Made by a program: the position numbers and the translations under genes. Positions 2,956-11,858 of a DNA stretch of 64,000 nucleotides are shown in pieces. Below the pieces are notes generated by a model that saw nothing but the letters and a program-made list of their open reading frames with translations, was not told the DNA's origin and made no database searches. Within the stretch, counting starts at the first letter, position 1. The number at the start of each line of letters is the position of its first letter. The stretch spans positions 4,975-68,974 of the forward strand of contig DAOVCJ010000002.1 of NCBI GenBank assembly GCA_030670085.1, written 5' to 3'. The stretch comes from Candidatus Aenigmatarchaeota archaeon (GTDB lineage: Archaea; Aenigmatarchaeota; Aenigmatarchaeia; QMZP01).

Positions 2956-4030
2956 GTCGAATGACAGGCTCGTAGGGTTTGGAACAGGTGTGTTGACCCA
3001 GATAAACAAGATGAAAAATCCAGACATAAAACTACCGATCAGAGCGCTTTCGAACATTTATTTCGATGAGAAGCATAAACTGATAAGGCTGGGAGACAAG
3101 GTAAGTCACAGAACGTACCTGAATGTTGCTCACACCAGGAAGTTCATGCAGACCCTGCTGGTAGCTTCTGAATGCAAGAAGATAATAAACCAGAACGTCA
3201 CCACATCCATCAGGGATCTTTATTACGCTCTGAAGCATACAATACCCGGAACGAATGAAAACACCTTTGAAGACCAGTCCGAGTCGGATCCCATACTGGA
3301 GGATTTGGAGGCAGCCCTGAACACCCTGAGAGAGGCCCTTCACCTTCAGGCAGACAGGAAGGGATATGTCGCAGGACATATCATGATAAATGACCGTGGA
3401 GACCGAATAGACTGCGCCAAGATGGGTTCCTCCGGCTGGGCTATCCCATCGAACGTTGAACCAGAGGTCATAAAGTTTGAAAAATGTACGGCAGATTTTG
3501 TTCTGGTGATAGAGAAAGACGCGGTCTGGCAGAGACTGAATGAGGACAAGTTCTGGAGAAAACAGAACTGCCTTATCCTGACCGGAAAGGGACAGCCTGC
3601 AAGGGGAACGAGAAGACTGATAAACAGGCTTCACAAGGAACTAAAGCTCCCAGTCTATGTCCTCACAGATGCAGACCCTTGGGGTTATTATATATACTCT
3701 GTTATAAAACAGGGCTCGATAAACCTGTCGTTCCTTTCTGACAGGCTCGGAACTCCTAATGCCAAGTTCATTGGACTGACTGTCCAGGATGTTGAGAAAT
3801 ACGGCATCACAGAGAACGTTACCATAAAGCTGAACCAGGGCGACGTCAAAAGAACGAATGAGATGCTTAAGTATGTCTGGTTTAAGCCAAAGGAGTGGCA
3901 GAAGGAACTGAGACACATGCTTGAGAAGGGATACAAGCTGGAGCTTGAGGCTCTGTCTTCAAAGGGGATAAAGTTCATAAGCGAGAAGTATCTACCTGAA
4001 AAGATAGCGAAAAAGGAATTCCTACCATGA
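2909..4030 (+). CDS. top6A: DNA topoisomerase VI subunit A (Spo11-like)
   Basis: Toprim/Spo11 motifs ([23 protein letters not shown]). The ATG at 2909 is preceded by GGTGAGGAG; the track ORF starts at TTG 2888. Overlaps top6B by 47 nt. Confidence 0.88.
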
Positions 4031-6835: not shown

Positions 6836-7822
6836 TCAGGCACCCTGCTGGGACTCAAGAAAGACTTCCTTTATTTCTATTGGTTCCACTTTCCTGGACC
6901 TGAGACCCTTCCTTATAATAACGAGCCTCTTCCTAGGACCTGGTACAGATCCCGAGAGGAGCAGGTAATCACCCTTTACCAAACCATAGTTCAGCCATCC
7001 ACCCTTGGGATTGATTCCTCCAGAGCCAGTCTTCATAACCATTTTGTTGAACTCCGTCCGGGTCTGGAAACCGAGCTGTCCTGCCATGGCTATCTTCCCA
7101 GGAAGCACCCTTGCCACTCCCCTCACACCGATAACACCGGTATGCCTTCTTTTCCCCTTGTTTTTCCTAGACCTTATTATAACTCCGAACCTCTTGACAG
7201 GGCCCTGGTAACCCTTTCCCTTGTCCACCGCAGAAACATCAATCCATTCCCCGTTCTTGAAGACATCAGAGACCCTTATCTCATCACCAAGCTTCTGCTT
7301 TGCATACTCCCATTTCTTTTTAACATCACCACCCAGACCTAGCTCAAACAACTCTAGTTTTTTCTTCCCTATGCCAGATTCTCTCGGCTGGGTGTGAACA
7401 AGCAACCTTATGTCCGCAACTTTTTCTATCTGCCCTTCAAGGGATTGAATCTTAGTTTTGGGGTCTGTCTTTTTAGGTACCTTTGTTTTCCTGTCAAGGT
7501 CTTTGGAAAGTTTCTCTGCCCAGATGGTCTCAATCCTTTTCAGACCCTCGGATTTTCTGTAAACATGTATTGCGCAAACCCTAAGTGAGGGACAATCCAG
7601 AACCGTTACAGGTTTGACAATCTCCTCACCCTCTGTTGTAGAATCCTTTCTCTGATTAACAAAAACGAGTCTGGTCATGCCTGCCTTGTAACCAGCAAAC
7701 GCCAACGGCAGGGCTTCCTCAATCTTTAATGCCCTGGTCTTGACCCTGGGATAGATTCTCTTGGCTCTCTTTTTTGGCCAGTATGCCCTTGAACCAGCAA
7801 CGGGTTTGTGATGCTTTGCCAT
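6836..7822 (-). CDS. rpl3: 50S ribosomal protein L3 (uL3)
   Basis: Typical archaeal L3 N-terminus MAKHHKPVAGSRAYWPKKRAKR. Length 328 aa. Confidence 0.9.
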   Translation of the reverse strand: MAKHHKPVAGSRAYWPKKRAKRIYPRVKTRALKIEEALPLAFAGYKAGMTRLVFVNQRKDSTTEGEEIVKPVTVLDCPSLRVCAIHVYRKSEGLKRIETIWAEKLSKDLDRKTKVPKKTDPKTKIQSLEGQIEKVADIRLLVHTQPRESGIGKKKLELFELGLGGDVKKKWEYAKQKLGDEIRVSDVFKNGEWIDVSAVDKGKGYQGPVKRFGVIIRSRKNKGKRRHTGVIGVRGVARVLPGKIAMAGQLGFQTRTEFNKMVMKTGSGGINPKGGWLNYGLVKGDYLLLSGSVPGPRKRLVIIRKGLRSRKVEPIEIKEVFLESQQGA

Positions 7823-8707: not shown

Positions 8708-9253
8708 TCACTTCTTTTTGGATTTTGCAGGCTGCCTCTTCTTCTTTGAAACCCCAACTGTCTTTCCCCCGCTTCCGGAACCTGTTCTCTGGCCGCGGAC
8801 GGGTAGACCAAGTATGTGCCTTACCCCTCTGTAGGATTTCAGTTTCTTCATTTCATTTATGTCCATTTTGTGGGCAAGCTCCAGCTTGGATACGCTCAGG
8901 TGCATGTCCCTGCCTGTTACAGGGTCCCTCTTCCTGTTGTAAAGCCAGGAAGGTATTCCAAACTTCTCGGGATTTAGTATAATCTCCTCTAATCCCTGCA
9001 TCTCCTGTTCTGAGAGCTCTCCAAGCTTCTTGTCACCAAACCCGGTCATTTTTGAAACAGCGTTGCTGAACATGAAAGACACACCCCTTATACTTCTTAT
9101 CGCTACCTTTACTGGTTTTCCACCATCAAGGTTGGTTTCAACCAGCCTTATGATATCCTGCACCCTCTTCTCCTTTTTCTCAGCCTCCTCGGGCTTCTTA
9201 CCTTTGGGAATTTCTTTCCCCTTCTCTGCATGGGCATGCTTTTTCTTTTCCAT
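8708..9253 (-). CDS. rps13: 30S ribosomal protein S13 (uS13) with a K/E-rich N-terminal extension
   Basis: S13 core IIRLVETNLDGGKPVKVAIRSIRGV, preceded by an N-terminal extension of about 28 aa. Confidence 0.88.
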   Translation of the reverse strand: MEKKKHAHAEKGKEIPKGKKPEEAEKKEKRVQDIIRLVETNLDGGKPVKVAIRSIRGVSFMFSNAVSKMTGFGDKKLGELSEQEMQGLEEIILNPEKFGIPSWLYNRKRDPVTGRDMHLSVSKLELAHKMDINEMKKLKSYRGVRHILGLPVRGQRTGSGSGGKTVGVSKKKRQPAKSKKK

Positions 9254-9299
9254 GAAATCACTAATAGTTACTAGTATATGTAAAAGGTATTTAAATTAA

Positions 9300-10076
9300 T
9301 TAAAACTCGCCTCTTTTGCTGAAGAACTTCTCATATTCCAGCGCAGTTTTTTCATAATCCTGTATAAAATTCTCATAGCTCTTTATCATCTTCTGGTCAG
9401 TGAGTCTTGTGACTGGTTCTGATCTTAGCTTCTCAATCCTGTCCCTGAATTTTTTGATTATGCTTTCGCACATCTTTGTCTCGAATTCATAGATATTTCT
9501 TACAAGTCTGGATTTCCTTTTCCTCCAAGTAGAGATTAGAATCGAGTCTATCTCAGGCTCAGAACCAGGCTCATATGACTTTATCTTGATATCCGTTATG
9601 AGCTTCCTAAGTTTAAGCTTCTCCCTTTTGTTAAGTATCAGTTTTTTCGCTCTCTTCAGAGTAAGGGAATCAAAGTACGCGAAAAGCTCGCTCACTACAT
9701 CGAACCTGGTCATGACATACCAGAGCAGTCCCAGGAAGAAGATATAGTAGTTTATGTAAATGATGGAGTCTATTAGAAATTTCTCTATAAGAATATTGTA
9801 AGACCAAAGAACCAGGGTCATCCCTGATGTTAACACTGTTAGTAAGGCATGAGACACCATATACCCAGAAGACTGAATCACTACGAATTTCTTCATCTTC
9901 TTTTCCATAAACAATGCAACATACCAGCTTATTCCGGAATGCAGAATGTAGAACATTATGAAGTATAAGTAGTATGGGAACCCGAATATGATTGCTACTG
10001 TGAAGCTGAATATCCCCATGCAAAAATAGTAGTAATGGATTATCTGGAAATACTTAACACCAATATAGATGTTCAT
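9300..10076 (-). CDS. Hypothetical membrane protein, paralog A (four TM helices plus a C-terminal coiled soluble domain)
   Basis: 258 aa in a low-GC insert. About 75% amino-acid identity to the adjacent paralog B. Confidence 0.5.
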   Translation of the reverse strand: MNIYIGVKYFQIIHYYYFCMGIFSFTVAIIFGFPYYLYFIMFYILHSGISWYVALFMEKKMKKFVVIQSSGYMVSHALLTVLTSGMTLVLWSYNILIEKFLIDSIIYINYYIFFLGLLWYVMTRFDVVSELFAYFDSLTLKRAKKLILNKREKLKLRKLITDIKIKSYEPGSEPEIDSILISTWRKRKSRLVRNIYEFETKMCESIIKKFRDRIEKLRSEPVTRLTDQKMIKSYENFIQDYEKTALEYEKFFSKRGEF

Positions 10077-10102
10077 ATAATTTTATAGGGATTCCTGATT
10101 TA

Positions 10103-10876
10103 TCAATAGTTCTTTTTGCTGAAGAACTTTTCATATCCCAGCGCAGTCCTTTCATAATCCTGTATAAACTTTTCATAACTCTTTATCATCTTCTGGTCAG
10201 TGAGGGTCAGATCTGGTTTTGATCTTATTTTCTCAATACTCTCCCTGAATTTCTCGATTATCTTCTCGCACATCTTTGTCTCGAATTCATAGATATTTCT
10301 CTCGATGTTTGACTTTCTTTCCCTCCATGCAGATATCAGAATCGAGTCTATCTCAGGTTCAGAACCAGGTTCATAGGACTCTATTTTGAGATCAGTAATG
10401 AGCTTTCTAAGACCAAGCTCCTCCCTTTTGTTAAGTATCAGTTTTTTCGCTCTCTTCAGAGTAAGGGAATCAAAGTACTCGAAGAGTCCACCCACTAAAT
10501 TGAACTTGGTCATGGTATACCAGAGCAGTCCCAGGAAGAACACGAAGTAGTTTATCTGAATAATAGAGTCTATTAAAAACCTCTCTATAAATACCTGGTA
10601 ATACCACAGAAACAGGGTCAGCCCTGCTGTTAAGAATGTTAATAAAATATGGGACACCATATAGCTATTGGATTGTATCACCACGAATTTCTTCATCTTC
10701 CTTTCCATAAAATATGCGACGTACCAGCTTATTGCAGAATGGATGATGCAGAAGATTATGAAGAATATGGAGTAGGGGAACCCGAATATGATCGCTGCCG
10801 TGAAGCTGAATATCCCCATGCAGAAATAGTAGTAATGAATCATCTGAAAATACTCAACACCAATATAGAGACCCAT
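10103..10876 (-). CDS. Hypothetical membrane protein, paralog B (tandem duplicate of 9300..10076)
   Basis: 257 aa. Long identical DNA runs with paralog A, for example gttaagtatcagttttttcgctctcttcagagtaagggaatcaaagtac. Confidence 0.5.
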   Translation of the reverse strand: MGLYIGVEYFQMIHYYYFCMGIFSFTAAIIFGFPYSIFFIIFCIIHSAISWYVAYFMERKMKKFVVIQSNSYMVSHILLTFLTAGLTLFLWYYQVFIERFLIDSIIQINYFVFFLGLLWYTMTKFNLVGGLFEYFDSLTLKRAKKLILNKREELGLRKLITDLKIESYEPGSEPEIDSILISAWRERKSNIERNIYEFETKMCEKIIEKFRESIEKIRSKPDLTLTDQKMIKSYEKFIQDYERTALGYEKFFSKKNY

Positions 10877-11015
10877 ACAATTTTATAGGATTTCTGGGTT
10901 TATCAATACCAAAAGCAAGCCCACAAAAACCGCTTTATTAACCCGGAATAAACTTAAATATATTATGAATACAGTATATAGTTAATAATCACGGGAAAGC
11001 AACCAAAGAGTGTAT

Positions 11016-11045
11016 GACGGCTTGGACATACTGGGTTAAGCCGTC
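11016..11045 (+). repeat. Hairpin element copy 3 (GACGGCTT-N14-AAGCCGTC) in the leader of the L4 operon
   Basis: Perfect 8-bp stem with a 14-nt loop. Lies 16 nt upstream of the rpl4 ATG and downstream of AT-rich TATA-like sequence around 10953-10983. Confidence 0.8.
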
Positions 11046-11060
11046 CAACCGAGTGATGGT

Positions 11061-11858
11061 ATGAAAATACCGGTGTACAGCATGAACGGGAAAGTGAAGG
11101 GGAGCTTAAAGGTAGACAAAGCATTCTCCAACCCCGTTAGAAATGACCTGATTCAGAGGGCAGTCCTGGCAGAGCAGTCAAAGCTCATCCAGGCCTACGG
11201 AAGCGATCCCCAGGCAGGGAAAAGAACATCAGCCCATTACCATGGAAGAAGGGGAAGGAGGATGACCATGATGAACAGGGAGATGGCAAGGATGAAGAGG
11301 ATCCATGGTTCAGGTGGACTTCACATGAGGGCAAGGTTCGTTCCCCAGGCAGTCAAGGGAATGAAGGCCCACCCACCAAAGGCAGGAAAGAAATGGGCCA
11401 TAAAGATAAACAAAAAGGAGAGGATAAAAGCCCTGCTCTCTGCTGCATCAGCATCATCTAAAAAGGAGATGGTTGAGAAGAGAGGCCACATCCTGGATGG
11501 AGTGAAGCATGTCCCGCTGGTGATTGAGGACAAGATGCAGGACCTGAAAAAGGTCAAGGAGATCAAAGAGGTCCTGGAAAAGCTCGGCCTGAAAAAGGAA
11601 CTGGAAAGAGTGAAGGAAAGGAAGGTGAGAGCAGGCAGGGGAACTGCAAGGGGGAGGAAGTACAGAGTAAAGAAAGGACCCCTTCTTGTGGTAGGAAAAG
11701 ACGGAGGAATCACAAAGGCCGTTCGGAACCTGGCAGGGGTTGATATTGTTGAGGCGGACAACCTTAACGTCTCGATGCTTGCGCCCGGGACACAGCCGGG
11801 CAGATTATGCTTATGGACTGAATCAGCTGTAAAGAAGATGGAGACCCTGGGAGACTGA
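11061..11858 (+). CDS. rpl4: 50S ribosomal protein L4 (uL4/L1e)
   Basis: N-terminus MKIPVYSMNGKVKGSLKVDKAFSNPVRNDLIQRAV is typical archaeal L4. Confidence 0.9.
   Translation: MKIPVYSMNGKVKGSLKVDKAFSNPVRNDLIQRAVLAEQSKLIQAYGSDPQAGKRTSAHYHGRRGRRMTMMNREMARMKRIHGSGGLHMRARFVPQAVKGMKAHPPKAGKKWAIKINKKERIKALLSAASASSKKEMVEKRGHILDGVKHVPLVIEDKMQDLKKVKEIKEVLEKLGLKKELERVKERKVRAGRGTARGRKYRVKKGPLLVVGKDGGITKAVRNLAGVDIVEADNLNVSMLAPGTQPGRLCLWTESAVKKMETLGD

Follow-up and report, generated by a model that had tools for sequence, protein, structure and literature searches.

Two closely similar genes for small membrane proteins stand side by side between the S13 and L4 operons of ribosomal proteins (r-proteins) in the window, the whole 64-kb stretch of archaeal DNA that was analysed. 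How did such a pair come to lie there, and what do its products do? A preliminary description of this DNA regarded the two genes as a strain-variable accessory insert in the most conserved part of the chromosome. The evidence leads to a plainer answer: the gene pair is real but ordinary, the result of a tandem duplication, long past, of a membrane-protein gene native to the lineage. The features on which the argument depends are the following.

9300-10076, minus strand: paralogue A, an ORF of 258 amino acids with an ancestral-type C-terminus, directly upstream of S13.
10103-10876, minus strand: paralogue B, an ORF of 257 amino acids, with four predicted transmembrane (TM) helices, a predicted cytoplasmic helical domain and a chimeric C-terminal end (..KKNY, then stop).
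8708-9253, minus strand: S13, flanking the pair downstream.
11061-11858, plus strand: L4, flanking the pair on the other side, divergent.
10114-10908, minus strand: tandem repeat unit 1, comprising the putative core promoter of B and the B ORF to about codon 254.
9314-10108, minus strand: tandem repeat unit 2, comprising the putative core promoter of A and the A ORF to about codon 254.

A and B are arranged head to tail, with S13-S4-S11-L3 downstream on the same strand and L4-L23-L2-S19-L22 on the plus strand, diverging from the pair. They form a direct repeat in register with a spacing of 800 nt, in which positions 9314-10108 correspond to 10114-10908, and the repeat takes in 32 nt 5' of each ATG. 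The ORFs and this 800-nt repeat bear out the earlier account of two tandem paralogous genes of 257 and 258 codons. The identity of about 85% given there was too high: a gapless alignment of the two proteins has 77% identity (197/256), and over 768 nt of DNA the identity is 83%, including uninterrupted matches of 58, 35 and 26 nt. Paralogue B matches the family profile at 6e-108, A is identical to the database sequence P0004, and the close matches to both genes come from Candidatus Aenigmatarchaeota MAGs. A search with the family profile found no third copy within the 64-kb window. The surroundings are less conserved than was assumed, the r-protein cluster itself being rearranged in this lineage: L3 follows S11 and does not precede L4, and genes for a NusA-like KH protein, RpoD, S12 and S7 are appended after S8.

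The GC content of the pair is 0.35-0.40, against 0.45-0.53 in the flanks. Together with the lack of a known domain in A and B, this speaks for a horizontally acquired, strain-variable low-GC cassette placed between two r-protein operons. The AT-richness is, however, confined to codon positions 1 and 2. GC at third positions (GC3) is 0.517 in A and 0.531 in B, compared with a mean of 0.521 for 61 ORFs of the window, and the choice of synonymous codons in the two genes is typical of the window (z = -0.73, +0.17). The GC expected from amino-acid content and window codon usage is 0.388/0.394, close to the observed 0.373/0.384 (z = -0.8, -0.5). Phenylalanine, tyrosine, asparagine, lysine, isoleucine and methionine make up 45% of the residues of A and B, against 32% on average. 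Since both GC3 and synonymous codon usage are native, the low GC of the pair is a by-product of amino-acid composition and not a mark of foreign DNA. The genes are richer in AT than their neighbours, as had been noticed, but at synonymous sites the anomaly expected of an insert is absent. This simple check of GC3 separates foreign DNA from AT-richness driven by amino acids, and it is applicable to other such candidates.

The distribution of the family points the same way. A protein search of 5.8 billion sequences returned only 12 close clusters, at 61-95% identity, and all those with a named source are Aenigmarchaeota. When 1.84 billion representative proteins were searched with a profile, the family grew to 57 clusters at 50% identity, whose named members are Aenigmarchaeota or an unclassified 'archaeon'. 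Complete members measure about 240-285 amino acids and share the same architecture from end to end; shorter matches cover part of the profile. A scan of GTDB genomes used two very specific peptide patterns and led to 2 species, so that it carries little information on the spread of the family.

Where relatives have the gene, they tend to have it in the same place. The gene immediately precedes S13-S4-S11(-L3) in L002 (62% identity, on a 520-kb contig), L005 and L006 (63%), L007 (69%), L009 (69%) and L015 (37%), and the slot is also occupied in L021/L022, L024 and L025. Wherever the contig of a relative extends far enough, L4 is found divergent on the far side of the gene. The slot between L4 and S13 is kept in relatives down to 33-54% protein identity, and the place ahead of S13-S4-S11 in relatives down to 33-37%, which is consistent with descent alongside the neighbouring genes. 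When metagenomes were scanned with S13 as the anchor, seven loci had an S13 of at least 66% identity, and six of them carried the gene directly upstream (L020, L021, L022, L024, L025 and L027). The sole exception, L023, lacks it on a contig of about 1 kb, and at five loci with S13 identity of 49% or less the gene was not seen in the available sequence upstream of S13. L027, itself a short contig of about 1 kb, holds a single chimeric B/A copy, and copy number may therefore vary between close strains. These two loci, a possible single copy and a missing gene, could be read in favour of a cassette. Nothing else hints at variability, and both are contigs of about 1 kb. In more distant members (23-38% identity) the surroundings are different, the neighbours including tRNA synthetases, NrdD/NrdG, or a UbiE-like methyltransferase with PhoU/PHO4.

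Hallmarks of mobility were sought as well. Phage and plasmid collections and IMG/VR, the last scanned with the A1 alignment, yielded no homologue, and aragorn detected no tRNA in the window. The annotated ORFs adjoining the pair are all housekeeping genes and include no integrase, and the tandem unit itself accounts for the only repeats. Atypical synonymous composition, patchy presence among close relatives and mobility hallmarks, the three marks of a genomic island, are all lacking. With native composition, a kept slot, a range of one phylum and no mobile homologues, A and B are best regarded as a lineage-restricted gene, vertically inherited, and not as a strain-variable cassette, an origin that we now consider very improbable. 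Homologues conserved in the lineage and of normal composition are essentially what was found, and it was on their absence that the preliminary description had let its own proposal depend.

The non-coding DNA around the pair suggests how it arose. Four short elements are relevant here.

10899-10906, minus strand: TATA-like box TTGATAAA of B, at -30 to -23 from the B ATG; putative promoter of a leaderless transcript.
10099-10106, minus strand: the same TATA-like box in front of A, which holds the B stop codon TGA (10103-10105) and is the duplication junction.
9288-9295, minus strand: putative TATA box TTTAAATA of the S13-S4-S11-L3 operon, abutting the A stop codon.
10947-10992, plus strand: conserved element of 46 nt (AATAAACTTAAATATATTA..), the putative promoter of the L4 operon.

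The box TTGATAAA occurs at -30 to -23 in both copies, in the single-copy orthologues of L002, L007, L009 and L025, and in both copies of L021. A second, AT-rich element lies at -12 to -3 from the ATG in the two copies and in single-copy orthologues. Such spacing is that of the TATA box and the proximal promoter element of an archaeal transcript that starts at the ATG. No Shine-Dalgarno-like sequence of the GTGAT type precedes A or B; S13 and L4 each have one, 5-8 nt before the start codon. With a TATA-like box centred about 26 nt before the ATG and no such sequence upstream, each copy appears, by position, to be its own leaderless transcription unit. S13 probably has a promoter of its own; the block TAATTAATTTAAATACCTTTTACATATA is kept here in L002, L005, L007, L021 and L025. 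The element of the L4 operon is nearly identical in L001, L002, L007, L021 and L025, even though in coding DNA these match the window at only 62-75%, and it may act in both directions. Judged from these motifs, the layout looks like four adjacent promoters, one for each of the two operons and one for each of the genes B and A between them. A hairpin at 11016-11045 in the L4 leader is not conserved in relatives, and an Rfam scan of the window at gathering thresholds gave no match.

The junction itself is informative. B ends in ..KKNY, and A and the single-copy orthologues end otherwise. A stop codon of B that lies inside the box of A, combined with this deviant C-terminus, indicates that the duplication brought the core promoter of the following copy up against the 3' end of the preceding one.

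We then have to ask how old this event is. In a neighbour-joining tree A groups with P0003, and B with P0001 and P0002, in separate clades that each have 100% bootstrap support; single-copy sequences fall outside both, and the B copy of L021 joins the B-clade orthologues P0001 and P0002. An intact B-A pair with the same junction is present between L4 and S13 in L021 and L022, contigs of a different species (S13 89% identical) that were obtained from other assemblies and samples. L003 and L004, 99.8% identical to the window, have the B-A pair with this junction too. Separate orthologue clades, and a B-A pair shared with a second species, place the duplication before the species split. Synonymous divergence between A and B is likewise substantial (dS 0.50, with dN/dS 0.26). 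Of the preliminary verdict of recent duplication or gene conversion, therefore, the word recent has to be given up, as separate orthologues exist in a second species.

The same comparisons bear on the reliability of the assembly. Tandem repeats of this kind disturb assemblies, and CP070801.1, deposited as a chromosome, illustrates the point: there the pair is split 330 kb apart. A real rearrangement was considered and rejected, since a run of 100 N coincides exactly with each break point (L001 6867-6966 and L010 5901-6000), the break falling inside copy A. The split is thus a scaffolding artefact caused by the repeat, and contiguous contigs of CP070801-type species carry the intact pair. One might suspect, with the single copy of L027 in mind, that in the window too one gene has been expanded to two, or that two strain variants have been joined in tandem. 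We give this hardly any credence: the same B-A pair and junction recur in the window, in L003/L004 and in L021/L022, that is, in other assemblies and a different species, and the copies differ at 17% of sites, each with its own orthologue.

Another possibility is that the duplication was neutral and transient, leaving a redundant pair of which one copy is decaying. The A copy of CP070801.1 contains an in-frame TAA, L027 has its one chimeric B/A copy, and dN/dS is higher between the paralogues than between orthologues. Orthologue pairs, however, have dS of 0.55-0.66 and dN/dS of only 0.11-0.17 along both lines (B 0.11; A 0.17). Both copies are intact in the window, in L003/L004 and in L021/L022, the A orthologue P0003 is intact as well, and the single TAA in a MAG consensus may be an error. 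Both copies are, on these substitution rates, under purifying selection, and the decay of one of them is unlikely.

Divergence since the duplication has not been entirely independent. In four-sequence site patterns compared with CP070801, 31 sites follow orthology, 19 are concerted and 4 conflict; compared with L021 the figures are 38, 13 and 5, where the excess of concerted over conflicting sites is weak if taken alone (p = 0.10). The longest identical run between paralogues within one genome is 58 nt in the window and 83 nt in L021, in different parts of the gene, whereas orthologues share runs of at most 31-34 nt even though their overall identity is higher. Of the long identical stretches that had been reported, the one of 58 nt exceeds chance when differences per codon position are held constant (permutation p = 0.002). 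Furthermore, the paralogues have a lower dS than the orthologues do, even though they separated earlier. Concerted sites, long runs and low paralogue dS together support short-tract, patchy gene conversion, and this half of the preliminary verdict stands.

Taken together, A and B are most probably native, vertically inherited paralogues of a small family, all of whose members with a named source are Aenigmarchaeota (DPANN), produced by an old tandem duplication and since then subject to purifying selection and patchy gene conversion. The course of events would be as follows. Ancestrally, in this clade, the gene would have lain between the promoter of the divergent L4 operon and that of the S13 operon. 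A single tandem duplication of an 800-nt unit, comprising the core promoter and nearly the whole ORF, would have occurred before the window species and the CP070801-type species separated. It would have fused the 3' end of B to the TATA-like box of A, which now supplies B with its stop codon. Both copies would then have been retained under purifying selection, the long identical runs being the product of short conversion tracts.

What the proteins look like can be described with more confidence than what they do. An AlphaFold2 model built on a 43-sequence alignment reached a mean pLDDT of 87.6 and agrees with the earlier description of four N-terminal TM helices and a charged C-terminal domain. 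The hydrophobic helices span residues 7-31, 35-60, 70-92 and 98-124. They are followed by C-terminal helices at 127-154, 162-167, 174-185, 191-218 and 225-256, which end in an antiparallel helical hairpin. The outer loops have 3-5 residues, and the loop 57-70 and the C-terminal domain are rich in lysine and arginine; by the positive-inside rule this charge places both termini in the cytoplasm. The model thus implies a four-helix membrane bundle with an N-in/C-in topology, followed by a basic cytoplasmic domain of five helices (pI 8.8-9.7). A comparison of the two TM hairpins with hhalign gave no significant indication of an internal duplication (probability 18%).

Conservation is concentrated at the predicted cytoplasmic ends of the TM helices, in polar or aromatic residues: H14, Y15, H46/S47/S50/W51/Y52, S75/H76, N109 and W119/Y120. 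H14 and Y15 are invariant in 43/43 sequences, and N109, Y168, G171 and D177 are nearly so. In the close family the motifs HYYYFCMG, HS..SWY, SH..LT and WY are invariant at these ends, and a conserved cytoplasmic loop reads Y168-x-x-G171-S/T-D/E-x-x-I/V-D177. Among B orthologues (window versus CP070801), dN is 0.05 in the TM half, lower than the 0.096 of the C-terminal half.

None of this sequence resembles a known domain, as had been stated at the outset. Searches of Pfam, NCBIfam, PADLOC and PHROGs with A, B and 43 family members returned only sub-threshold noise (FapA, EST1, RecR_C, CATASP and a stray MFS_3), and a profile search of PDB sequences gave coiled-coil noise, the best match being the I-BAR domain of MIM (2d1l, E = 0.03). 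Foldseek found nothing with E <1 when a shallow model (pLDDT 63.5) and the deeper model were compared with PDB, and the deeper model with BFVD. Assignment to the BAR/I-BAR domains has no basis here: the match to 2d1l and Foldseek values of E >3 are at the noise level for long helical hairpins. The strictly conserved polar TM residues, combined with a protein that has almost nothing outside the cell, point to an activity inside the membrane or on its cytoplasmic side. We tentatively suggest a small oligomeric channel or transporter, or else a lipid-facing enzyme; a passive anchor or surface protein is less likely.

The position of the gene invites a further reading, in which it encodes a translation-linked membrane factor, such as a ribosome tether or a co-translational insertion factor, and its linkage to S13 serves co-regulation. 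The gene directly precedes S13-S4-S11 in many relatives, distant members adjoin aminoacyl-tRNA synthetases, and the cytoplasmic domain is basic. Archaeal clusters of r-protein and SecY genes also encode a YidC-like membrane protein, DUF106/EMC3. Against this, a promoter-like box precedes the gene itself and a separate TATA box precedes S13, and the linkage is lost in several subfamilies. The proteins match PF01956 not even at E = 10 and have no Foldseek match to YidC, EMC3 or GET1; in sequence, fold and topology they differ from the YidC/Oxa1/EMC3/DUF106 group. We therefore give a translation link a slender chance at best, and an Aenigmarchaeota-specific membrane factor of previously unseen fold, working with the translation apparatus, is improbable to the same degree. 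Were it true, it would account for the retention of the gene in front of the S13 operon and beside tRNA-synthetase genes.

Several points make the locus worth recording. An apparent foreign cassette in an r-protein region has turned out to be a native gene, and a false lead is removed. On a small scale the pair illustrates cleanly how, at the junction of an old tandem duplication, a TATA box can come to serve as a stop codon too, and the repeat was sufficient to mis-scaffold a MAG chromosome published as 'complete' (CP070801.1). The family, unannotated and limited to Aenigmarchaeota, has a confident predicted structure, no detectable relatives in sequence or fold, strongly conserved polar TM residues and a fixed slot beside the S13 operon. 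Studies of the membrane of these small, probably symbiotic archaea could reasonably take it as a target.

Comparison with better-known systems helps to place both the genes and their products. In their mode of evolution A and B resemble bacterial paralogues of the tufA/tufB type, with shared derived states and long identical tracts within a genome and, here, a duplication that predates a species split. They differ in that conversion is patchy: the copies are still 17% divergent in DNA and retain separate orthologue clades. As to the proteins, the YidC-like DUF106/EMC3 proteins are likewise small, helical and membrane-bound, with a cytoplasmic coiled-coil hairpin and a gene among r-protein genes. 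Their order of elements is TM1, hairpin, TM2 and TM3, however, whereas A and B have four consecutive TM helices and then the C-terminal helical domain. Bestrophin, Orai, Hv1 and CorA-like channels share with A and B four TM helices, a cytoplasmic helical domain and conserved polar TM residues. The likeness is one of architecture only, as there is no significant match in sequence or fold (best Foldseek E >1) and TM4 lacks an arginine ladder. Finally, hypothetical proteins predominate in DPANN genomes (PMC9258230), and the family described here is like other lineage-specific archaeal and DPANN hypothetical families in being confined to one phylum, conserved within it, unannotated and predicted to be membrane-bound (PMC9258230; PMC8204110). 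What the family of A and B has in addition is a well-marked place in the gene order and a structure predicted with confidence.

The tandem pair of membrane-protein genes, paralogues A and B, lies between the S13 and L4 operons and appears to have left its mark on the assembly of CP070801.1, a metagenome-assembled genome deposited as a chromosome. Gaps of 100 N fall exactly within copy A at both places in it that carry a half of the locus (L001, 6867-6966; L010, 5901-6000), and these halves are scaffolded about 330 kb from each other; the tandem repeat is therefore probably behind the mis-scaffold. An in-frame TAA is also present in the copy A fragment of this genome.

Copy number upstream of S13 may differ in a very close relative (L027, 207-1128 of a 1367-nt metagenome contig; S13 95% identical), in which only a single copy, with a B-type body and an A-type 3' flank, is found. 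Either B and A recombined and sequence was truly lost, or the assembly collapsed the repeat. In a metagenome contig of another relative (L023, 60-467; S13 79% identical) the position upstream of S13 is taken by an unrelated 135-aa ORF instead of the membrane-protein gene.

The length of the S13 leader also differs among close relatives, as follows.

Window 9254-9299: S13 leader
L021 (intact B-A pair of another species) 3912-4000: S13 leader
L027 about 985-1128: S13 leader

The short form is found in the window and in the relatives' loci L002, L007 and L025, while in L021, L010 and L027 about 45-110 nt, including a GGAGG-like motif, are added between a conserved TATA block and the S13 ATG. Two features mark the L4 side.

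10947-10992, plus strand: 46-nt element upstream of L4, AATAAACTTAAATATATTATGAATACAGTATATAGTTAATAATCAC
11016-11045, plus strand: GC-rich 8-bp hairpin in the L4 leader, GACGGCTT..AAGCCGTC

The 46-nt element is almost identical in relatives with only 62-75% coding-DNA identity; it is probably the promoter of the L4 operon and may act in two directions. The hairpin, for which the surrounding 78 nt (10986-11063) give a fold of -19.3 kcal/mol, is seen in the window; L021 and L001, whose leaders are shorter, lack it. Across the window (1-64000), aragorn detected no tRNA genes and no Rfam family reached the gathering threshold.

One distant subfamily of the membrane-protein family (23-28% identity) occupies another neighbourhood.

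L011 5364-7409: distant subfamily locus
L013 5369-7406: distant subfamily locus

In both loci a UbiE-like methyltransferase lies just upstream, and the 3' end of the subfamily gene overlaps a convergent PhoU_div gene, itself adjoining a PHO4 phosphate transporter.

The ribosomal-protein cluster is rearranged in the window's lineage.

6836-7822, minus strand: L3
19144-21695, plus strand: NusA-like KH protein, RpoD, S12 and S7

The window has the order S13-S4-S11-L3 in common with L002, L005 and L021. In this lineage, L3 follows S11 rather than preceding L4, and RpoD, whose usual place is after S11, is instead found downstream of S8, behind the NusA-like KH protein and followed by S12 and S7.
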